A stretch of 64,000 nt of DNA from Clostridia bacterium. GTDB taxonomy: Bacteria; Bacillota; Clostridia; Oscillospirales; CAG-272. The stretch spans positions 6,108 through 70,107 of the forward strand of contig JAFYBN010000125.1 of NCBI GenBank assembly GCA_017540175.1, given 5' to 3'. This document shows positions 50,238 through 59,241 of this stretch, one piece after another. How positions within the stretch are numbered: position 1 is the first letter of the stretch; each line of letters opens with the position of its first letter. The notes beneath the pieces were generated by a model. That model did not search any database, was not told the DNA's origin, and was given only the letters and a program-made list of their open reading frames with translations. The position numbers were made by a program, and so were the translations under genes.

Positions 50238-51524
50238 TCAAAGTCCCGTATAGCCGCCCGTCTCCGTGATTCGGCTTTGGACGGCCGTGGCGTCCGCTTG
50301 CTGTACGCACGTGCCGTTTTTGCGCGCGATCGCCGCGGCGATGCCCGCCGCCTCGCCCGTGGTCGAGCAGATGGGCATGATGCGGATCGACGCCTGGGCC
50401 TCGTGGGTCGCCGAAATGCAGCGCCCGCCGACGAGGAGGTTTTCGCACTCCTCCGCCTTCGGCGTGAGGGAGCGGTAGGGGATGGTGTACCAGGTGCCCT
50501 CGGCGAAATAATAATGGCTCGTGCCGGTCCCCTCCGGGTTGTGGATGTCGATGTCATAGTTTCCGGCGGCTATGGCATCCGGGAATTTCGTGCACGCGAC
50601 GAGGTCCTCCCCCGTGAGCACATACGCGCCGTCGAGCATGCGGCTTTCCCGCACGCCGATGCTTGCCGCCGTTTCGATGAGCTTCGCGTTCTCAAGTCCC
50701 GGGATTTGATTCTCGCGGAAGAAATCGAGCAGTTCTCTGACCTGCCGCCTTGCCTCCGCCTCCGCGCGGGAGACGTCGAAGGGATCGACCGGATTCAGCT
50801 TCACCACCCGCGTCGTGTTGAAGTGGAGCACGCCGTCGATGGGATAATCGAACACGAGGATGTTCTCGCGCGGATTGGAGAAGCGTCCCGCCTCGAGCCA
50901 TTCGCGGTGCAGGCGGCTCCACGTCTCACGGTTCGCGAAAAAGGTCTTTTTGTCGGCGTTCACCATGCGGAAGCACAGCGTCATCGGCTGGCAGAGATTG
51001 TCGCCCGGTCTGCCGAGCCTTGTGGACACGCCCGCCATGACGCAGAGATCGGCGTCCCCCGTCGCGTCGACGAACATGTCCGCGCAGAAGGTCAGCACGC
51101 CGGATTTCGTCGCGGCGTCGACCGAGACGATCCTTGCCCCTTCCTTCTTCACGCCGCAGAGCGTCGCGTGAAACAGGACCGTGACACCCGACTCCGCGGT
51201 TTTTTCGTCGAGGATGAGCTTCACGTCCTCGTCTAGGTACGAGCTGTCGCCGCGGATGCCGCCGCGCTCGCGCAGAGCGTCCACAAGCTCCCGCAGAAAG
51301 CCGCGGCTCAGCTCATGTCTGTGCCGCGCTCCGTTTTCGTCCGTCACCGTGGTGGTATAGGGCATGAAGGGGAAAATCAGATTCCCGGACAGCGCTCCGC
51401 CGAGCGATCCCGCCGCCTCGATGAGGAGCACCCGCTCGCCCATTCTCGCCGCCGCGACCGCCGCCGCGCAGCCGGTCAGGCCGCCGCCGACCACGATCAC
51501 ATCGTATTTGTTCTCACAAAGCAT
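50238..51524 (-). CDS. FAD-dependent oxidoreductase
   Basis: Inner start MLCENKYDVIVVGGGLTGCAAA (ATG 51524 after GGGAGG); dinucleotide-binding GxGxxG; own extended -10 TGtTATAAT (TATAAT at 51561-51556). Confidence 0.85.
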   Translation of the reverse strand: MLCENKYDVIVVGGGLTGCAAAVAAARMGERVLLIEAAGSLGGALSGNLIFPFMPYTTTVTDENGARHRHELSRGFLRELVDALRERGGIRGDSSYLDEDVKLILDEKTAESGVTVLFHATLCGVKKEGARIVSVDAATKSGVLTFCADMFVDATGDADLCVMAGVSTRLGRPGDNLCQPMTLCFRMVNADKKTFFANRETWSRLHREWLEAGRFSNPRENILVFDYPIDGVLHFNTTRVVKLNPVDPFDVSRAEAEARRQVRELLDFFRENQIPGLENAKLIETAASIGVRESRMLDGAYVLTGEDLVACTKFPDAIAAGNYDIDIHNPEGTGTSHYYFAEGTWYTIPYRSLTPKAEECENLLVGGRCISATHEAQASIRIMPICSTTGEAAGIAAAIARKNGTCVQQADATAVQSRITETGGYTGL

Positions 51525-51563
51525 CTCATGCCTCCCGTTATGTTTGTTTGATGCCATTATAAC

Positions 51564-51594
51564 AGAAAACCCCGGATATTGCAAGTATCCGGGG
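51564..51594 (-). terminator. Rho-independent terminator closing the nif-like operon
   Basis: Minus strand reads CCCCGGATA-CTTGCAA-TATCCGGGG followed by TTTTCTGTT, 17 nt after the hydF stop. Confidence 0.8.
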
Positions 51595-51611: not shown

Positions 51612-52811
51612 TCAATCGTTCAAAACGGGTTTCAGCGCGCGGGAGAGGATGCCGTTCATCTCGGCGATGGCGACGCCGTAGTTCACCATGGGAACGCCCG
51701 CCTCGGCACATCGCGCCATGCGGCTTTTCATTTCCCGCTCGTTCAGCATGCACCCGCCGCAATGAACGACGACGCTGTATTCCGAGAGATCGTCCGGGAA
51801 CTCGCCGCCGGAGGTGAAGGAGAAGGACGGCTCGGCGTGGGAATAATTCCGGATCCACATGGGGAGCTTCACCGTGCCGATGTCTCCGCACTGCCGCCTG
51901 TGGGAGCATCCCTCGGCGATCAGCACGCGGTCCCCGTCCCCGAGGGAGCGCAGAGCCTCCGCGCCGCGCACGAGCGCGCCCAGCTCGCCCTTATACCGCG
52001 CGAACAGGATGGAGAACGAGGTGAGGGGCACGTCCTCTGGCACGAGCTTTGAGACCCGCGCGAACGCCTGCGAATCCGTGATGACGACGGCGGGCTTTTC
52101 ACAGAGCGACGCCAGAGCGCCGGGGAGCTCCGTGTCCCGGACGCAGACGACCGCCGCGCCCGCCTCGAGCAGGTCGCGGATGACCTGCTGCTGGGGCAAA
52201 ATCAACCGTCCCTTCGGCGCGGCGTCGTCGATGGGGATGACGAGCACGGCGCAGTCTCCCGGCTTCACGAGATCGGCGGCGACGTGCTTTTCGACCCGTC
52301 CCGCGGAGCCGAGCGCGGCGATTTTCGCCCGCAGCGCGTCGATCCCCTCTCCCGTGAGCGCGGAGACGGCGATCCCGTCTTCCACGGCTACGGATTCGAC
52401 CACGAGATCGCTCTTGTTGTATGCGATCACATACGGGATGTTTCTCTCCCGGAAGACGGCGAGCAGGGCGCGGTCATCATCGCCGAGCCCGACGGACGCG
52501 TCGACCGTCAGCACGGCGACGTCAACGCCGCTCATGGCCTGTTTCGCCCGCTCGACGCGCAGGGAGCCGAGCTCGCCCTCGTCGTCGATGCCGGGGGTGT
52601 CGATCAGCACAACGGGACCGAGCGGCAAAAGCTCCATCGCCTTCTTGACGGGGTCGGTCGTCGTGCCCTTCACGGGGGAGACGACGGCGATCTTCTGGTT
52701 TGCGACGGCGTTCATCAGGCTCGATTTCCCGGCGTTGCGCATGCCGAAAAAGCCGATGTGAACACGCTCGCCGGACGGGGCCTCGTTCAGGGACGCGAGA
52801 TTCTTTTCCAT
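51612..52811 (-). CDS. hydF: [FeFe]-hydrogenase-type maturation GTPase HydF
   Basis: 399 aa; GTPase motifs GMRNAGKSS, DTPG, NKSD; C-terminal cluster motif CSH...HCGGC (the CxH / HCxxC signature of HydF). Confidence 0.85.
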   Translation of the reverse strand: MEKNLASLNEAPSGERVHIGFFGMRNAGKSSLMNAVANQKIAVVSPVKGTTTDPVKKAMELLPLGPVVLIDTPGIDDEGELGSLRVERAKQAMSGVDVAVLTVDASVGLGDDDRALLAVFRERNIPYVIAYNKSDLVVESVAVEDGIAVSALTGEGIDALRAKIAALGSAGRVEKHVAADLVKPGDCAVLVIPIDDAAPKGRLILPQQQVIRDLLEAGAAVVCVRDTELPGALASLCEKPAVVITDSQAFARVSKLVPEDVPLTSFSILFARYKGELGALVRGAEALRSLGDGDRVLIAEGCSHRRQCGDIGTVKLPMWIRNYSHAEPSFSFTSGGEFPDDLSEYSVVVHCGGCMLNEREMKSRMARCAEAGVPMVNYGVAIAEMNGILSRALKPVLND

Positions 52812-52834: not shown

Positions 52835-53940
52835 TCAGAACGCCGAAGCGGCGGACGACGGGTCGAAGATGCGGTTCGCCTGTTCGTCGGTGAGCTCGAT
52901 GCCGAAGACCTCGCGGTAGTACGCCCTGGTCTCCGCCGTGATGTCGATGTCGGCGAAGAGTTCGGGATAGACGGTCTTCGCCATCCAGAGCAGCGTCACG
53001 GGCGTGTCGACGCCGCAGGTGTAGCTGCGGTACATGCCGAGGGGCATTTTATAGACCTTGCCGTTCTTCACGGCGTCGACCTCGCTCCAGTCGTAGTTGC
53101 CCACGGTGTTATTGATGAGATCGGCAGGTTTTGCGGGGTTGAAGTTCGTGATGAGGATCTTCTGCGGGTTCCACGCGTAGATCTGTTCCATCGTCACGGC
53201 GGTGGAATTGTCCGTTTCCATTTCCGAGCCGACGTTGTACGCGCCGACCGCGTCCGCCCACCACTGACCGAAGAAATGCCTGCCGGAGGTGGTGATGGTC
53301 GTTTCGTTGTACTGGAAGAGGAAGAACACTTTCTCAGCAGTGTCCAGCGCGGCAACTCTGTCCTGAACGCGCTGATACACGTCCGCGCTGTAGGTCTTGA
53401 CCTTTTCGGCGCGGTCCTTGTTCGCGGGGAAGATCTCGGAGAGCAGAAGGATCCAGTTGTTCAGGGTTTCGATGGCGTCGTAATCCCATTTGCCCGCGGC
53501 GACCGAGATGCCGGGGATGCCCGCGTTTTTGAGCTGTTCGCCGATCTGGGGCGTGCTGCCGTAGAAGACGACGTCGGGCTCGAGCTTCATGAGCTCTTCG
53601 ATGTTGACGGTCGTGCCGTCGATGAAGTCCGTTTTCGCGTCAAGGATCTCCGGATAGAGCTCGGAGAGCAGGCTGTTTTTCGCGGCGGTCATGCTCGGGG
53701 GAGCCATTCCGACGATCTTTTCGGCGGAATCGAAGAACACGGCGAGCACGCTCACGAGGGGGTAGATGTCACAGACGACGATGCGGTTGATCTCTGCGGG
53801 CACCTCGACGACGTTGCCGCGTGGTCGGTGACGGTCACTTTGCCGTCGGTCTTTTCGGTTTTACCCGCGCACCCGGCAAACGCGCCCGAGAGCATGAGGA
53901 CGGCGAGGAGTGCGGAAATGAGACGGAGGGAGGTTTTCAT
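52835..53940 (-). pseudogene. Chelate (iron-siderophore/cobalamin/heme type) ABC substrate-binding lipoprotein, frameshifted
   Basis: The signal peptide and lipobox ORF (53940..53752, MKTSLRLISALLAVLMLSGAFAGC) and the binding-domain ORF (53803..52835, ...VPAEINRIVV...) are in different frames. Restoring one G in GACCACGCGGC near 53817-53822 gives continuous ...VTVTDHAGNVVEVPAEINRIVV... Confidence 0.8.
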
Positions 53941-55112
53941 AAATCAAATTCCTTTCTGAACTTGTTGAAATCACGGATGAGGTCGGGAATATCCCGGCGG
54001 AACATACGCCCGGAAAAGCCCTCGTGCGGCAGCGGGACAAAGCGCGCCGTTTTCGGGACGATCGGGCGGTAGAGCGGATCGGCGATCACGGTTTCCGCGT
54101 TCTTGAGCAGGGGGGCGAGATCGTCCTCGTCAACCGCCATGGGGCAGCCGGACGCGGTGAGAAGCGGGTCGGTGTCGGTCGCGGAAACCGCGCGGGTGGG
54201 CACGCCGCTCTCAAGCGTCAGAGCGCGGGCGAGGGAGCATGCCGTCACGCCCTCGCCGATGACGACGCGGCGGGCGTCCGATTCTCCGATCCCGATCACG
54301 CGGCATTCTCCGTCATCCGCCGACTTGCGGAGCAGGGAAAAGAGTTCTTCGGCATACCGGTCGCCAACGGGCGTGCCGACGACGTACGGGGTGCCGAACC
54401 GCTCCTTCAGAACCTTTGCCGCGCCCATGCCCGCGCCGGACACGACGAGATTGACCGCCGCGGAGGCGCTTTTTTTGAGCTCGTCGAGGGACGAGCCCAT
54501 CGCCCAGCGGGAGAGGACGGAAAAGCCGTTTGCCTCAAGCAGGTCCTTCATGGCGGCGTCGGCGCCGAGGACGGAAAAATCGAGCGGGGTCAGTCCGAGA
54601 AGATTGACGGGGATGCCCTTTTGAACTGTTCCTTGATTGTCCTGCACGGTCACAAACCGTTCAGCGACCGCGGCGAGCGCCGCTGACGCGCCCCAGACAT
54701 AGGAGCGCATTCCGTTCGTGTCGAAGCCGAACGAGGGGATCCCCGTACGGTCTTCGATCTGCCGCGCGACCGCGGCGAAATCCACGCCGGTCATCATGGG
54801 AATCGGCGTTCCGGCGATCGCGACGAACGCGGGCTTCAGTTCCCGCGCGGCCTTCACGACGTCGCCGATCAGCTTTTCGTCGTCGCCGAGCATCGCCTCG
54901 ACCTCCGTCAGGGCGGAAATAAAGACAAGGCTGTCGTGATCGTACCAGCGCGGCTCGTCGTGGGTATTGTAGGTGGAATTGCATCCGGAGGCGTCGTGCA
55001 TGACGGTCATGCCGCCGAGCTCGAAGAGCGCCGACGCGACGCCGGAGGTGTCCCCCGCGTAGGTGGAGATGATCCTTGCAGTCTGCTTTACTGACATAAG
55101 CCGCACCCCCAT
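53937..55112 (-). CDS. Nitrogenase component 1-type oxidoreductase, beta-like subunit (NifK/BchB/BchZ-like)
   Basis: 391 aa; HDASGCNSTY cluster loop, AFVAIAGTPIP, overall Oxidored_nitro layout; start ATG 55112 or ATG 55097, both overlapping the upstream gene; TGA overlaps the next ATG. Confidence 0.8.
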   Translation of the reverse strand: MGVRLMSVKQTARIISTYAGDTSGVASALFELGGMTVMHDASGCNSTYNTHDEPRWYDHDSLVFISALTEVEAMLGDDEKLIGDVVKAARELKPAFVAIAGTPIPMMTGVDFAAVARQIEDRTGIPSFGFDTNGMRSYVWGASAALAAVAERFVTVQDNQGTVQKGIPVNLLGLTPLDFSVLGADAAMKDLLEANGFSVLSRWAMGSSLDELKKSASAAVNLVVSGAGMGAAKVLKERFGTPYVVGTPVGDRYAEELFSLLRKSADDGECRVIGIGESDARRVVIGEGVTACSLARALTLESGVPTRAVSATDTDPLLTASGCPMAVDEDDLAPLLKNAETVIADPLYRPIVPKTARFVPLPHEGFSGRMFRRDIPDLIRDFNKFRKEFDL

Positions 55113-56404
55113 CCCTTGATCCCGATGAGTCCCCGGGTGTCCTTTTCTTCAAGGAAGGCTTCGGTCATGAGCTCTGCCGTACGGATCACCGCGTCGAAGC
55201 CCCAAAGCCCGCCGTTTTCGACGACGTTCACAAAGTGCGGGGACGAGGTGAAGTAAGCGGCCTTCTGCCCGACGGCGAGCGTACGCGGATCGCCGTCCCG
55301 GGGCATGACGCGCATCGAGGGGTGCACCGTCGGCCAGATCATGAGCTGCGGCGCTTCGTGTTTCAGAGCTTCGAAATCCTCTTTTTCCTCCCCCGTGAAG
55401 GAGTCCGCGTAGATCCGCTTCACCCGGAAGCCATGCTTCAAAAGGAGCCGGGCAAGGCTCAGGGGACGGGAGAACGCCGTGTAATCGATCACGACGGGCA
55501 CGTCGCCGATCACCCGCTTCGCCTCCCGCATCGCCGCCTCACATTCCGCTCTATTCTGTGACCAGTCGGGGACGGGAATGCCGAGCGCGGCACAGAGCTT
55601 TTCGTACTGCGCTTCGATCTCGTCCGCGTCGAAGCTGAACGGGAGGTGGAGATGCTTCATGCCGTGCTTTTCGGCGAGCATTTTCCCGGCGGGAATCGCG
55701 GCGGGCTGGGTTGTCAGCGCGAACGCGGCGCGGGCGAGCTCAAGGTATTCGGAAAAGGTTTTCGCCTGCTGGATTTCGGAGTGCCGGAAGCCGTTTTCAC
55801 GGAGAAGAGCCGTGAAATCCCCTTCTTCGACGGCGAAATCCCCGCCGACGGAGAGGACGGTCTTCGGGTCGTGTTCCTTCGGATCGAGCAGGCTGTAAAG
55901 CTGACGCCGCATGAGCTGATCGGGCGTCAGACCGGATTTGCGCATGATGGGGTTCATATAGCAGTCCGTGAACCGCACGGAGGGAAAGCGTCTTCCGAGC
56001 TCCCCGTAGGCGAGCGTGAGATCGGTTCCCATGAAATGGTGGACGCAGCTCGTATAGACGAGCACGGCGGGCGGCAGGGACGGCAGTTTTTCGAGGATGT
56101 CCGTAACACCCTCGACGAGCAGATTTTCGAGATCGCCGTCAAGCACGTTGTTTTCGCGGACCGCCACGGTCGAAAAGCGCTCCGACGCGCCCATTTCCGC
56201 CGCGGTGAGCACCACGCCGCGCAGGCATCCCTGCGCGCAGACGAAGATCTCGTGCGCTTCGGGCACAAGCATGCCCGTGTGCGCGATGTTCCACGTTCCG
56301 CGTGCGGGAGCCGCGTATTCGAGCCCCGCGTCAAACGGCGCGGGGAAGGAAGCCTCCGATATGGGAAGGGGCTTTCCCTCTTTTTCGCCGAGCTTTCGGA
56401 TCAT
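55088..56404 (-). CDS. Nitrogenase component 1-type oxidoreductase, alpha-like subunit (NifD/BchN/BchY-like)
   Basis: 438 aa; N-terminal cysteines in FVCAQGCLRG and VYTSCVHHF; Oxidored_nitro-like three-domain layout; ATGA overlap with the nifH-like gene. Confidence 0.8.
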   Translation of the reverse strand: MIRKLGEKEGKPLPISEASFPAPFDAGLEYAAPARGTWNIAHTGMLVPEAHEIFVCAQGCLRGVVLTAAEMGASERFSTVAVRENNVLDGDLENLLVEGVTDILEKLPSLPPAVLVYTSCVHHFMGTDLTLAYGELGRRFPSVRFTDCYMNPIMRKSGLTPDQLMRRQLYSLLDPKEHDPKTVLSVGGDFAVEEGDFTALLRENGFRHSEIQQAKTFSEYLELARAAFALTTQPAAIPAGKMLAEKHGMKHLHLPFSFDADEIEAQYEKLCAALGIPVPDWSQNRAECEAAMREAKRVIGDVPVVIDYTAFSRPLSLARLLLKHGFRVKRIYADSFTGEEKEDFEALKHEAPQLMIWPTVHPSMRVMPRDGDPRTLAVGQKAAYFTSSPHFVNVVENGGLWGFDAVIRTAELMTEAFLEEKDTRGLIGIKGWGCGLCQ

Positions 56405-57162
56405 ATTCCCTCCTGTGCAGCTGCGATCACGGCGTCCGCGAGCGCGCGGTACTCAGCCGCGGTCTCGCTGTCCGGAAAAGCTTCGATCACGGTCTTCATG
56501 AGCTCTTCGGCGTCCGTCACCGTATCGCTGCGGCTGATCGAGCCGACGACGCGGGAGCCGATCTTCCCGGCGAGCGCGCCGACCTTTTCGTCCTCGTTTT
56601 TCACGTTCCGGCGGTTCAAAATCAGCCCGCCGAAGGTGGCGTAGCCGCGGTTTTTGAAACCGTCGACCGCCGCGGCGATGTTCTCGGCGGCGTGAAGCGA
56701 CATGTTCTCCCCGGAGGTCACGACGAAGACCTGTTCCGCGTAGCCGGGTCGCATGGGCATGGTGAAGCCGCCGCACACGACGTCGCCAAGCACGTCGTAA
56801 AAGACGACGTCCGGCTGATAGACCTCGTACGCTCCTTTTTCGCGGAGCTTTTCGAGCGCGGCAATGATCCCTCTTCCGGCACATCCCGTACCCGGCGCGG
56901 GACCGCCCGCCTCGACGCAGATCACGTCCGCGTACCCCCAGCAGGTCATGTCCGAGAGCGAGAAATCGTTTCCCCTCTCCCGCACGAGATCGAGCACGGA
57001 CGGCAGTTCCCGTCCGCCGCGCAGAAGAAGGGTGGAATCCGCCTTCGGGTCGCAGCCGATCTGCATAACGCTGAGGCCTCTTTCGCCCAGCGCCGCCGCG
57101 ACGTTTGCCGCCGTGGTCGATTTCCCGATGCCGCCCTTTCCGTAGATCGCGATTCGTTTCAT
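56401..57162 (-). CDS. NifH/BchL/CfbC-family ATP-dependent reductase (iron protein homologue)
   Basis: 253 aa; P-loop YGKGGIGKST, switch I GCDPKADST, cluster cysteines in GTGCAGRG and DVVCGGF. Confidence 0.9.
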   Translation of the reverse strand: MKRIAIYGKGGIGKSTTAANVAAALGERGLSVMQIGCDPKADSTLLLRGGRELPSVLDLVRERGNDFSLSDMTCWGYADVICVEAGGPAPGTGCAGRGIIAALEKLREKGAYEVYQPDVVFYDVLGDVVCGGFTMPMRPGYAEQVFVVTSGENMSLHAAENIAAAVDGFKNRGYATFGGLILNRRNVKNEDEKVGALAGKIGSRVVGSISRSDTVTDAEELMKTVIEAFPDSETAAEYRALADAVIAAAQEGI

Positions 57163-57980
57163 ATCTGTTCTCCTTTGTCCGCGTCATCCGCGAGCCGGAC
57201 CGGGAGGATCCCGCGGACCCTCGTCCCGTCCGCTTCAAACTCGCCGACGACCGTTTCGACGCCGAACGCCTCCCGGATGTGGTCCCGGGTGACGATGATG
57301 TCGGTTTCACCGAACAGGGCGCGCCCGTCTTTGCCGAGCAGAAGCGAACGGTCGGCGTGCTGCAGCGCGTGTTCGGGATAATGCGTATTGAAAATGACCG
57401 CCATGCCGCCCTTTGCGAGGGAGCGCAGCGTTTCGAGCACAATGAGCCGGTTTTTGAAATCGAGGTTCGATTCCGGCTCGTCCAAAATGAGAAGCTCCGG
57501 TTTCGCCGCGAGGGCGCGCGCGATGAGGACCATCTGCGCCTCTCCCCCGCTGAGCTCGTCGAACCGGCGTCCGAGCAGGGCGGAAATGCCGAGCTCTGCC
57601 GCGAGAGAACGCACGAAGCCGCGCTCCTCTTCTCCGGGGGAGGAGAAGACGCCGATCCGGCCCGTGCACCCGAGCAGGATCATGTCCTCGACGGCGAGGG
57701 AAACCGGATTGCCCCTTGCCTGCGGGACATAGGAGATCCGTCTCCAGAGCTGGCGGGACGGAATGCTTCCAAGCTCCGTGCCGTCGATGAGGGTGCGACC
57801 CGCGCTCCACGGCAGAAAGCCCGCCATACAGCGCAGCAGGGTCGTCTTCCCCGCCCCGTTGGGACCGAGAACGGCGACGAGCTGACCGGAGCTCACGGAA
57901 AAACTGAGCTCGGAAAGCACGGGCTTTCCTTTTTTGTACGCGAAGGACGCGTTTTCAACCGTCAGATTCACAGCCTCCAC
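57159..57980 (-). CDS. ABC transporter ATP-binding protein, FepC/FecE/BtuD type
   Basis: Walker A GPNGAGKTT, signature LSGGEAQ, Walker B LILDEPES; ATGA overlap with the nifH-like gene. Confidence 0.9.
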   Translation of the reverse strand: MEAVNLTVENASFAYKKGKPVLSELSFSVSSGQLVAVLGPNGAGKTTLLRCMAGFLPWSAGRTLIDGTELGSIPSRQLWRRISYVPQARGNPVSLAVEDMILLGCTGRIGVFSSPGEEERGFVRSLAAELGISALLGRRFDELSGGEAQMVLIARALAAKPELLILDEPESNLDFKNRLIVLETLRSLAKGGMAVIFNTHYPEHALQHADRSLLLGKDGRALFGETDIIVTRDHIREAFGVETVVGEFEADGTRVRGILPVRLADDADKGEQI

Positions 57981-58987
57981 CCCTCCGTTCTGCGCATGAG
58001 ATAAATGAAGAACGGCGCGCCGATGACGGCGGTCAGGATCGAGACCGGCAGATCGGACGCGGTCATGGACCGCGCGGCGGTATCAACAACCGTGAGGAAG
58101 CCCGCCCCAATGAAGACCGACGCCGGGAGCAGGGAGAGCTGGTTCGATCCCCATTTCATCCGGCAGATGTGGGGGACGAGCAGTCCGACCCACCCGACCT
58201 GTCCGCACATGGAGACGACGGACGCAGTCATGACGGCGGCGCATCCGATCACCGTGCCGCGCAGAAGCTTCAGATTGACCCCCGCGGCGCGCGCCTCGTC
58301 CTCGCTCAGCGGGAGCAGGTTCATCCGCCAGCGCAGAAGCAGGAGCACGGTGAGTCCGATCAGGATGGGCGGCGCGCCGAGCAGCAGCTCGCCGTACCCC
58401 GCGGAGCCGAGATTGCCCATCAGCCAATAGGTGATGGCGGGGAGCTCGGATTCGGTATCCGCCGTCAGCTTCGCCCACGAAACGAGGGCGTTGAACAGGG
58501 AGCCGATCATGATGCCCGCGAGCACCGTGCCGCTCAGTCCCCTTCCCGCTCTTCCGGAGCCCGTAAGGGTCGTGAGCAGGATCGCCAAAATGCCGAAGCC
58601 GAGCGCGAAGAGCTGGATGCCGACGAGCTTCATGCCGCAGAGCATTCCGAGCGCCGCGCCGAACGACGCGCCGGACGCCACGCCGAGAGTGTCGGGCGTT
58701 GCGAGGGGGTTTGAAAACAGGCTTTGGAACGAGCATCCTGCGGCGGAAAGCCCCGCTCCGGCGAGCATGGCGAGCAGGATGCGCGGGAGCCGCACATGCC
58801 ACAGTGTCGATTCCACAAAGCCGGACGGCAGCGATCCCCCCGTCAGGTGCCCGACGACGGAATGCCACAGATCGGCGGGCGTGACGGAATACCGCCCGAT
58901 CATGAGCGCGCACAGCCCCGCGATCACGGGGATGAACGGCAGGATGATCGCCGCGGGGCGGACGCGTCTTTTTTTCTTTTCGTTCAT
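57968..58987 (-). CDS. FecCD-family chelate ABC transporter permease
   Basis: 339 aa, about 9-10 TM helices; typical FecCD/BtuC pattern (RLPRILLAMLAGAGLSAAG, ATPDTLGVASGASFGA). Confidence 0.9.
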   Translation of the reverse strand: MNEKKKRRVRPAAIILPFIPVIAGLCALMIGRYSVTPADLWHSVVGHLTGGSLPSGFVESTLWHVRLPRILLAMLAGAGLSAAGCSFQSLFSNPLATPDTLGVASGASFGAALGMLCGMKLVGIQLFALGFGILAILLTTLTGSGRAGRGLSGTVLAGIMIGSLFNALVSWAKLTADTESELPAITYWLMGNLGSAGYGELLLGAPPILIGLTVLLLLRWRMNLLPLSEDEARAAGVNLKLLRGTVIGCAAVMTASVVSMCGQVGWVGLLVPHICRMKWGSNQLSLLPASVFIGAGFLTVVDTAARSMTASDLPVSILTAVIGAPFFIYLMRRTEGWRL

Positions 58988-59241
58988 TCTTTTGAGATAA
59001 CGCCGGAATAGGCGGTTTTAACGCTCACGCCGTCGAGGCGTCCGATTTTGCCGGAGAGCGCTGCGATTTTGTCCTGCGGGGCGTCCAGCGCGATGGAGAT
59101 GATGCTCACGCCGCGCCTGCGGTACGGGATGCCCATTCTTCCGATGATATATTCGCCGGTTTCATGCAGAAGCGAATTCAGCGCTTCGACCGAGGCGGCG
59201 TTCTCGACGATGATGCTCATGACGGCGACTCTGGTTTCCAT
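58984..59241 (-). CDS. TM1266-like small ACT/NikR-C-like protein (annotated elsewhere as putative iron-only hydrogenase system regulator)
   Basis: 85 aa; VAVMSIIVENAASVEALNSLLHE...IIGRMGIPY...IALDAPQDKIAALSGKIGRLDGVSVK follows the pattern I recall for the TM1266 family; first gene of the operon, ATGA overlap with the permease. Confidence 0.65.
   Translation of the reverse strand: METRVAVMSIIVENAASVEALNSLLHETGEYIIGRMGIPYRRRGVSIISIALDAPQDKIAALSGKIGRLDGVSVKTAYSGVISKE

Follow-up and report, generated by a model that had tools for sequence, protein, structure and literature searches.

The window analyzed here is a 64,000-nucleotide stretch of a Clostridia bacterium genome, in which three neighboring genes on the reverse strand encode proteins resembling nitrogenase components. 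The initial annotation had listed these open reading frames together with the motifs FVCAQGC, YTSCVHH, HDASGCNS, and a terminal GWGCGLCQ, all of which are present. The operon that carries the trio has a true TM1266 gene and a true HydF gene on its flanks and also encodes an importer, giving the following arrangement.

58984..59241, (-): TM1266-family protein, first operon gene (TIGR03959, 113 bits versus a cut-off of 60.8)
57968-58987, (-): BtuC/FecCD-type permease, importer component (profile search)
57159-57980, (-): ABC ATPase, importer component (profile search)
56401..57162, (-): NifH-like ATPase and [4Fe-4S] electron donor, 253 aa (PF00142, 286 bits)
57115-57141, (-): P-loop codons of the NifH-like protein, motif GKGGIGKST
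56881-56883, (-): NifH-like C94, aligned to a NifH cluster Cys
56773-56775, (-): NifH-like C130, aligned to a NifH cluster Cys
55088..56404, (-): D-like subunit (alpha/NifE/CfbD-like), subfamily A, 438 aa (PF00148, 66.5 bits)
56225..56239, (-): D-like C56-A-Q-G-C60 loop (FVCAQGC); C60 corresponds to NifD C88, C56 is a non-canonical extra
56039..56047, (-): D-like C120-V-H122 (YTSCVHH); C120 corresponds to NifD C154, H122 is a subfamily A marker
55091..55114, (-): D-like C-terminal tail GWGCGLCQ (C434, C437), predicted to be flexible
53937..55112, (-): K-like subunit (beta/NifN/BchZ-like), 391 aa (PF00148, 97.6 bits)
55050-55052, (-): K-like D21, invariant, adjoining the NifK C70 position
54981-54983, (-): K-like C44 (HDASGCNS), sole invariant Cys of this subunit
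54804-54806, (-): K-like P103, invariant, occupying the NifK C153 position
52835..53803, (-): Peripla_BP_2 substrate-binding protein of the importer, N-terminus provisional
51612..52811, (-): HydF, [FeFe]-hydrogenase maturation GTPase/scaffold (TIGR03918, 536 bits versus a cut-off of 325)

Both core subunits exceed the PF00148 cut-off of 28.6 bits and thus belong to the component-1 superfamily. As had been remarked previously, they are shorter than NifD and NifK (438 and 391 aa versus 486 and 519 aa). The AF2 model of the D-like protein (pLDDT 94.6, pTM 0.92) gives Foldseek matches to NifN, NifK, NifE, and BchN with TMq values of 0.58-0.68, and a Foldseek probability of 1.00 to NifN/K/E/D and BchN/B likewise indicates the component-1 fold. 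In a check of the interface geometry, a fused D-K model compared with fused NifEN yields a TM score of 0.34 and an rmsd of 28 A. The genome, which is 93.5% complete, contains only this one PF00148 pair.

The third protein carries the P-loop, the switch I/II regions, and the C94/C130 pair of the NifH/BchL/CfbC family (PF00142), and all of these features are kept when it is aligned with NifH, BchL, and BchX. It passes no NCBIfam equivalog, with scores of 317 for CfbC (cut-off 402) and 316 for NifH (cut-off 394). With every needed motif in place, it is equipped for ATP-driven electron delivery, as the initial annotation had expected from the P-loop and the two cysteines. Natural fusions of both the H-D and the D-K type occur. 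The three genes are best explained as encoding an ATP-dependent electron donor of the NifH type, together with a heteromeric D/K core that has the nitrogenase component-1 fold.

Predicted cysteine ligands at the D/K interface

Candidate ligands were mapped by MAFFT L-INS-i alignment with real NifD, NifE, NifK, and NifN sequences plus BchN, BchB, BchY, and BchZ, taken from annotated plasmids. Conservation in the D-like protein was counted on a set of 92 full-length representatives obtained by clustering at 50% identity (64 from subfamily A and 28 from subfamily B). C60 and C120, which align with NifD C88 and C154, are invariant in all 92. In the AF2 model, both are located at helix N-termini that follow adjacent strands, as in the cluster sites of the nitrogenase family. 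C44 of the K-like protein shares a column with NifK C95, NifN C44, BchZ C35, and BchB Asp36, and is retained in 19 of 19 orthologues and in 5 of 5 natural D-K fusions; D21 and P103 are likewise invariant in these alignments. Conservation of this extent in both subunits shows that the Cys pattern did not arise by chance. C44 does not correspond to NifK C70. An earlier hand alignment had assigned the two missing NifK cysteines to the segments SALTE and AIAGTP. The second assignment is sound, because NifK C153 aligns to P103 of AIAGTP, but the C70 position falls near G20 rather than in SALTE. Neither position holds Cys in the K-like protein.

C56 had also been counted among the alpha-side ligands. 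This residue aligns to the Gly of HGPxGC in NifD, NifE, BchN, and BchY, and occurs in only 74 of the 92 representatives, so it is not a canonical ligand and the family can do without it. There is no counterpart of NifD C62, given that the first Cys of the D-like protein is residue 56 and that a T/W region occupies this column, and the family alignment reveals no conserved N-terminal Cys. Because C56 is non-canonical, the NifD C62 counterpart is missing, and K-like C44 corresponds to NifK C95, the conserved canonical ligand set is 2+1. Thus, three of the cysteines originally proposed are indeed invariant, but the proposed 3+1 count is not retained.

Of the six P-cluster positions, only three, equivalent to alpha C88, alpha C154, and beta C95, are Cys. 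The column of the FeMo-cofactor ligand NifD C275 contains a gap or no Cys, and that of H442 has no His. In addition, no NifB exceeds its cut-off in the 93.5%-complete genome (best score 34.8 bits versus 343). Since three of the canonical P-cluster ligands and both FeMo-cofactor ligands are missing and NifB was not found, binding of a P-cluster or FeMo-cofactor by the pair is excluded on sequence grounds, and the same findings speak against its identity as NifDK, VnfDK, or AnfDK. The initial annotation had reached this view as well, and the alignment contains neither six P-cluster ligands nor the Cys/His pair of FeMo-cofactor that would contradict it.

The simplest reading of these sequence patterns, and most likely the correct one, is that each D-K pair carries one cubane [4Fe-4S] at the P-cluster position. 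D-like C60 and C120 and K-like C44 would hold this cluster, and its fourth iron would lack a conserved Cys. Candidates for the fourth ligand are C56 in the present protein, His122, and K-like Asp21; alternatively, the site may be open to substrate. Position 122 is His in subfamily A, and Asp in both subfamily B and the second paralogue.

A strict all-Cys 3+1 site, in which C56 is obligatory and relatives lacking it use another Cys, is a possibility that we regard as somewhat unlikely. Either C56 or C59 is present in 60 of the 64 subfamily A representatives, and the CxxxC spacing could reach one cluster in the AF2 model, where C56 is at the end of strand 51-57 and helix 58-70 has C60 in its opening turn. 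However, 4 of 64 subfamily A and 12 of 28 subfamily B representatives have neither C56/C59 nor a conserved N-terminal Cys, and H/D122 and K-like D21 are conserved better than C56. Because C56 is missing from 18 of the 92 relatives, an all-Cys site is not a feature of the family.

The C-terminal tail of the D-like protein bears Cys in 50 of 64 subfamily A representatives, compared to 4 of 28 from subfamily B. Its GCxxC motif is kept in the linker of D-K fusions, and the corresponding last block of the AF2 model has a pLDDT of ~56.

Relationship to known nitrogenase-like systems

In profile and fold searches, NifE, NifN, and NifK rank at or above BchN and BchB, with a profile E-value of 8e-17 for NifE compared to a weaker 6e-7 on the BchN/BchB side. 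NifEN is the best match by both measures. It is also heteromeric, it has one [4Fe-4S] per pair at the P-cluster site (as predicted for the D/K pair), and its single beta-side Cys, NifN C44, occupies the same position as K-like C44. Moreover, NifEN is a maturase with a NifH partner, and a maturase role is proposed below for the D/K pair. The two systems differ in that NifE contributes three Cys residues (C37, C62, and C124), of which the D-like protein lacks the first, and in that NifE has the NifD C275-equivalent Cys for the L-cluster, which is absent here. Assignment as NifEN itself was rejected: the NifE HMM gives 14.8 versus 505 bits, the 3+1 Cys set and the L-cluster Cys are missing, and NifB was not found.

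CfbD offers another useful comparison. Two Cys residues per subunit (Cys39 and Cys94) hold its one bridging [4Fe-4S] (review PMC13474568), and the spacing of C60 and C120 is comparable. For the NifH-like protein, the CfbC and NifH profiles give equally good scores. However, CfbD is a homodimer with 2+2 Cys, whereas the D/K pair is heteromeric and its K-like subunit gives one Cys. Identity with CfbCD was rejected on the scores for CfbC (317 versus 402) and CfbD (TIGR03282, 22 versus 268) and on the lack of a methanogen/F430 context.

The initial annotation had likened the cysteine pattern to that of DPOR (BchNB) and COR (BchYZ). These enzymes share with the D/K pair an ATP-dependent L/X protein, the beta-side ligand column (BchB Asp36 and BchZ Cys35 at K-like C44), and, by prediction, a single interface [4Fe-4S]. 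In contrast, BchN and BchY provide all three canonical alpha Cys residues where the D-like protein provides two, the NifK C153 position is still Cys in BchB but Pro in the K-like protein, and no photosynthesis context surrounds the D/K genes. Identity as DPOR or COR was rejected because the three-Cys alpha set is absent and scores are low for BchN (24.6-32.3 versus 324-420), BchB (49.9 versus 490), and BchZ (17 versus 529 bits). NifEN and CfbD are nearer analogues. Nevertheless, neither DPOR/COR nor NifEN shares the invariant set found here (equivalents of alpha C88, alpha C154, and beta C95); in those systems, all three alpha positions are used.

This 2+1 pattern was already published by Dos Santos et al. 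2012 (PMC3464626) for an uncharacterized "NifHEN-like" clade with members Dhaf_1539/1540, Mlab_1040/1039, and representatives from Coprococcus catus and Dorea longicatena. The clade was linked to ABC transporters, hydrogenase maturation proteins, and two linked copies, and was left without an assigned function. As in the present proteins, D/E-like members have Cys at alpha C88 and C154, K/N-like members have Cys at beta C95, and the FeMo-cofactor ligands are missing. By these described features, including the transporter and hydrogenase maturase linkage, the trio would belong to their "red" clade. The absence of HydG, the alternation of importer and Hyp genes, the C-x-His motif, and the C-terminal Cys tail are not described there. 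In our tree, the D-like subfamily is recovered as a separate clade (SH-aLRT support 100%). Group VI NFL proteins, which are next to group V and occur in a radical-SAM-rich neighborhood in Elusimicrobia, Gracilibacteria, and Myxococcales (Meheust et al. 2020), differ by description from the loci studied here, which lack a radical-SAM suite and are carried by Clostridia.

A candidate role in hydrogenase maturation

Subfamily A, defined by its C-x-His motif and C-terminal GCxxC tail, was present in 16 of the genomes sampled. All 16 encode HydE and none has HydG over its cut-off, although missing HydG could sometimes reflect an assembly gap because most genomes are drafts. For comparison, HydG is found in 242 of 399 sampled Clostridia, and HydE occurs in only 4 of 51 genomes that lack both HydG and this nitrogenase-like family. 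HydE also occurs in three genomes that have neither HydG nor a PF00148 gene. The pattern was seen in 12 genomes, was then predicted for 4 new ones, and held in all 4. Seven of the 16 genomes add a second nitrogenase-like trio, with HypD inside the cluster in 5 of 5 two-trio genomes tested. The other 9, including the source genome, have no HypD and instead carry a chelate-type ABC importer; [FeFe]-hydrogenase genes are present in 6 of 6 importer-type genomes tested.

The strongest context of the D/K pair is hydrogenase maturation in genomes where HydG was not found, a link that the initial annotation had not made. HydG and subfamily A are mutually exclusive in the sampled genomes and occupy the same genomic niche, near TM1266, HydE, and HydF. 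HydG is a radical SAM tyrosine lyase of H-cluster maturation whose fold and chemistry are unrelated to those of the D/K pair, and its replacement is read from distribution only. Because subfamily A is found only in genomes with [FeFe]-hydrogenase, HydE, and HydF in which HydG was not found, comparative genomics suggests that it most likely stands in for HydG and contributes to production of the CO/CN-bearing iron unit of the H-cluster. We give roughly even odds (about 0.5) to the joint reading that the D/K pair both holds a three-Cys [4Fe-4S] and serves in this role. In the window, the BtuCD/Fec-type importer takes the place of the second trio and HypFCDE partner module of other species. The D/K enzyme would then use an imported metal compound as its substrate or supply, and the flexible GCxxC tail of the D-like subunit would pass the product towards HydF.

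The importer also invites other explanations. An ATP-driven low-potential trio could reduce an imported metal chelate (a ferric siderophore, haem, or a corrinoid-like compound) to free or transform the metal, with the HydF link reflecting iron supply under a shared regulator. H-D-K genes are joined to FecB/C/E-type genes in varied orders in both subfamilies, and subfamily B, a sister grade that is importer-linked too, is found in genomes that have HydG or that lack any Hyd maturases, including both HydE and HydG. These features of subfamily B, within which subfamily A is nested in the tree, argue that the ancestral job of the family was tied to the importer rather than to hydrogenase. On a Sporomusa termitida plasmid, nitrogenase-like genes of an unrelated clade have a TonB siderophore receptor, a Fec-type importer, and an alpha/beta hydrolase as neighbors, and coupling of metal transport to cofactor assembly was proposed by Dos Santos et al. 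2012 (PMC3464626). We nonetheless consider such a chelate reductase unlikely for subfamily A, since it leaves unexplained why HydG is missing and HydE retained in all 16 of its genomes, why a genome has either the importer or the module of HypFCDE plus second trio in its place, and why the Cys tail is specific to this subfamily.

A reductase resembling DPOR, COR, or CfbCD, whose interface [4Fe-4S] would act on an imported porphyrinoid by reducing one of its C=C bonds, is very unlikely, even though tetrapyrroles are the substrates of every characterized superfamily member with a single [4Fe-4S] (review PMC13474568). The highest scores of the permease and ATPase are indeed to BtuC, corrinoid, and haem transporters, and the substrate-binding protein has a weak likeness to IsdE, but all of these scores are far below the equivalog cut-offs. 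Furthermore, no tetrapyrrole biosynthesis genes occur in the 18 loci examined, profile and fold searches point to nearer relatives than BchN and BchB, and the linkage to hydrogenase maturases would be unexplained.

Returning to a role in H-cluster assembly, we speculate, as a quite unlikely but specific version of this proposal, that the importer-type operon (TM1266, importer, one trio, HydF, and sometimes HydE) lets gut anaerobes lacking HydG and Hyp proteins build the H-cluster from an imported compound that neighbors have made, either a preformed iron-carbonyl/cyanide species or the direct precursor of one. No source of CO or CN was identified in the importer-type genomes. The open iron of the three-Cys cluster and the tail of the D-like subunit would then form the handling site. 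The interest of the three-Cys pair lies in its co-location with importer and hydrogenase-assembly genes in bacteria where HydG was not found. If the speculation is true, this would be the first case in nature of an organometallic cofactor building block being salvaged, and the nitrogenase fold would acquire a new function.

A nitrogenase-like trio between importer genes and HydF

Eight consecutive genes occupy the minus strand of the window from 59241 to 51612, and among them is the H/D/K trio:

Gene 1 (-): TM1266-family protein (TIGR03959, 113 bits)
Gene 2 (-): BtuC/FecCD-type permease
Gene 3 (-): ABC ATPase
Gene 4, 56401-57162 (-): NifH-like protein P0001, 253 aa
Gene 5, 55088-56404 (-): D-like protein P0002, 438 aa (PF00148)
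Gene 6, 53937-55112 (-): K-like protein P0003, 391 aa (PF00148)
Gene 7 (-): Peripla_BP_2 binding protein
Gene 8 (-): bona fide HydF (TIGR03918, 536 bits)

None of the trio proteins reaches the cut-off of the NCBIfam equivalogs for NifD/K/E/N, BchN/B/Y/Z, CfbC/D or NifH. The ORF for the binding protein begins at 53803 and encodes no signal peptide, and its homology to a 407-aa orthologue starts at orthologue residue 79 (window ~53818). This N-terminal region (53803-53940) may contain a sequencing error or a real break, or may merely encode a divergent leader. On the same strand, 27 bases past HydF, lies a FAD_oxidored-family gene (50238-51584, PF12831, 386 bits), which is not conserved beside HydF in the other loci aligned.

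In the assembly from which the window derives (3.9 Mb, 93.5% complete), this is the only PF00148 pair and there is a single true NifH-type gene; neither NifB nor a HydG over the cut-off was found anywhere in it. HydE is encoded outside the window (553 bits, contig C52:16313-17317), and two [FeFe]-hydrogenase-type genes are located on contig C119.

Ligands of the predicted interface cluster

The D-like protein has eight Cys residues, none of which is N-terminal of residue 56, and the K-like protein has four. The residues named in the initial annotation (D-C56, C60, C120, C434 and C437, and K-C44) are all present, and the P-loop and C94/C130 of the H-like protein are intact, as had been claimed. 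To place these residues, the family was aligned with real NifH/D/K/E/N, BchL/N/B and BchX/Y/Z sequences from annotated plasmids.

Equivalent positions in the trio and in reference proteins
D-C60: NifD C88 (Av numbering), NifE C62, BchN C49, BchY C89
D-C120: NifD C154 and equivalents
D-C56: Gly of HGPxGC in every reference
D T37-I40 region, without Cys: NifD C62
K-C44: NifK C95, NifN C44, BchZ C35, BchB Asp36
K-G20: NifK C70
K-P103: NifK C153 and BchB C95

C56 is non-canonical, since all references have the Gly of HGPxGC in its place. An equation of H51-x4-C56 with HGPVGC(88) was rejected on the same alignment, where C60 is the canonical residue. The "3+1" ligand set proposed by analogy with DPOR/COR thus becomes 2+1 canonical Cys and an optional one, and the earlier placement of K-C44 and of "SALTE" was off by one ligand position. 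North and Shafaat, in their review, likewise match the BchB Asp with NifK C95. In the D-like protein, the columns of NifD C275 and H442 hold neither Cys nor His. A role as a real nitrogenase was rejected, given the missing P-cluster and FeMo-cofactor ligands, the single PF00148 pair and the lack of NifB, and on this point the initial annotation was right. As read from the sequences, the cysteine pattern settles that the trio is not a nitrogenase in disguise, and that DPOR-like is too simple a label for it.

Conservation was examined among 254 D-like homologues (E<=1e-30; HMMER, 1.84 billion representatives). C60 and C120 are invariant in all 92 full-length representatives, and C56, C148 and C434 are present in 74, 63 and 46 of these, respectively. 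The family comprises two subfamilies, A (64 representatives, including the window protein) and B (28 representatives). Subfamily A carries a C120-x-His motif, with Gln replacing His in three proteins, has C56 or C59 in 60/64, and ends in a Cys tail, typically KGWGCxSC, in 50/64. Subfamily B carries C120-x-Asp in 26/28, with C56 in only 16 and the Cys tail in only four. Neither subfamily has a conserved N-terminal Cys; a Cys at position 31 in subfamily B was rejected as a stand-in for NifD C62 because only 9/28 representatives have it. For the K-like protein, C44, D21 and P103 are kept in 19/19 whole-genome orthologues and in 5/5 natural D-K fusions, and this same set contains no further conserved Cys. 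From these data we infer a single interface [4Fe-4S] cluster with three invariant Cys ligands and a fourth site that is either variable or open.

Dos Santos et al. (2012, PMC3464626) noted carriers of such genes in Desulfitobacterium, Methanocorpusculum, Coprococcus catus and Dorea longicatena. These authors reported that the D/E-like subunit has two Cys (alpha C88, C154) and its K/N-like partner a single one (beta C95/NifN C44), suggested a non-Cys fourth ligand as in DPOR, and observed two linked copies as well as linkage to ABC transporters and hydrogenase maturation proteins. Because the same features were described there, the cysteine pattern is a rediscovery, with a corrected alignment. 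A 2026 review (PMC13474568), which does not treat the family's own clade, gives two Cys per subunit for CfbD, 1+3 Cys for IsrDK and at most four Cys for group VI. The genomic context of the trio does not fit that described for group VI NFL.

Relatives, fold and natural fusions

In a direct phmmer search, PDB sequences matched the D-like protein no better than E ~0.4, and a family profile was needed. Its matches include NifE (8e-17), VnfD (3e-13), MarD (9FMG/9D9U, 1e-10) and ChlN (6e-7). The profile aligns only from residue 79 onward, and thus does not settle the C56/C60 region. In the AlphaFold2 model (84-sequence alignment, pLDDT 94.6, pTM 0.92), C56 closes strand 51-57, C60 sits in the first turn of helix 58-70, and C120 opens helix 120-124, which follows strand 113-119. 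Confidence in this model is low for the ten C-terminal residues, including the CxxC, so the tail is probably flexible. In a Foldseek comparison to the PDB, TMq was 0.60-0.68 for NifN, NifK, VnfK and NifE, and 0.58-0.60 for BchN. Nothing in the profile or fold searches favours DPOR/COR as the nearest relative. In a quick maximum-likelihood tree, subfamilies A and B and a second paralogue, D2, form one clade (100% SH-aLRT) that excludes NifD/E, BchN/Y and every beta-type subunit. Subfamily A is nested in the B grade of this tree, whose deep branches are long and whose rooting is arbitrary.

The family includes five natural D-K fusions (786-1010 aa) and a single H-D fusion (729 aa) (P0138, P0167, P0193, P0197, P0218 and P0160), which supports a physical H/D/K complex. 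The Cys motif of the D tail is retained in the D-K fusion linker. A natural D-K fusion was modelled confidently (pTM 0.88); its halves align with those of fused NifEN (E 1e-27), with a TM-score of 0.34 and no rigid superposition of the whole.

A possible stand-in for HydG

Among 400 sampled genomes of the class, 17 carry the family. Carriers are spread across at least 11 families, and a D-like gene was found in 0/10 sampled genomes of the window's own taxonomic family, a patchy distribution as expected for horizontal transfer. In the loci compared, H-D-K is coupled with a FecB/C/E-type importer in several gene orders, and in subfamily-A importer loci also with TM1266 and HydF or HydE. Subfamily-A genomes lacking the importer have H2-D2-K2, HypF, HypD and a HypE-like gene adjoining (TM1266)-(H)-D-K-HydF. 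The D2 paralogue (L027, L029, L031, L032 and L045) carries two adjacent Cys at 59-60, like BchY, and lacks C56, and K2 has C39 besides C44 in 2/4 cases; the cluster sites of the two trios in the Hyp-type operon thus differ.

Many importer-type operons (L025, L026, L028, L042-L044) contain an additional TM1266-like gene, lying between the genes for the ABC ATPase and for the H-like protein or HydE. This second copy is more divergent (35-46% identity to that of the window) and is missing from the window operon. A different nitrogenase-like clade occurs on Sporomusa termitida plasmid pSPTER (L038, NZ_CP036260.1 13837-32559), with three canonical Cys spacings in its D-like protein (32, 57, 115) and an H-like protein 64% identical to that of the window. 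These genes follow a Fec-type importer and adjoin a TonB-dependent siderophore receptor, an AraC regulator and an alpha/beta hydrolase. Thus, more than one nitrogenase-like clade is wired to chelate uptake.

HydG exceeds the cut-off in 242 of 399 sampled genomes of class Clostridia, most of which are drafts. In the first 12 subfamily-A genomes HydG was over the cut-off in none and HydE in all, related carriers not being independent (four share one genus). Among 51 genomes chosen for the absence of HydG and the family (hence HydG 0/51), HydE was over the cut-off in four. One of these has a true nitrogenase; the other three (G074, G081 and G120) have no PF00148 gene, and reflect either assembly gaps or another HydG-less arrangement. 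The pattern was predicted beforehand for four new carriers from an order-level sample and held (HydG 0/4, HydE 4/4); three of these lack HypD and are of the importer type, and one has HypD and is of the two-trio type. The importer type includes nine genomes from seven genera, all without HypD, and [FeFe]-hydrogenase genes are present in 6/6 tested. The two-trio type includes seven genomes, with HypD inside the cluster in 5/5 tested. Of the subfamily-B carriers, three have HydG and two lack any Hyd maturase.

On this basis, we propose that the trio takes part in H-cluster maturation in place of HydG. A precursor would be imported in the importer variant, and the Cys tail might serve in a hand-off. 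The main rival is that the family is basically a reductase for an imported chelate, with a merely indirect link to HydF. The importer linkage of subfamily B, within which subfamily A is nested, supports such a function. However, neither the strict absence of HydG from subfamily-A genomes nor the alternation of importer and Hyp genes fits a chelate reductase, and we consider it the less likely of the two.

Our literature search for HydG-less maturation, or for nitrogenase-like genes with HydF, found nothing beyond the 2012 report. The genomic evidence makes testable a loose end from that year, namely nitrogenase-like genes beside hydrogenase maturases. In addition, with the ligands correctly placed, the nitrogenase superfamily can be seen to contain an uncharacterised cluster site, marked by three invariant Cys, a fourth position that varies, a C-x-His/Asp motif and a tail with Cys. 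Does the trio replace HydG in many Clostridia of gut and rumen, and do some species import what others synthesise? If so, the accepted scheme of three maturases for [FeFe]-hydrogenase assembly would change, with a bearing on hydrogen metabolism in gut communities and on heterologous hydrogenase production.
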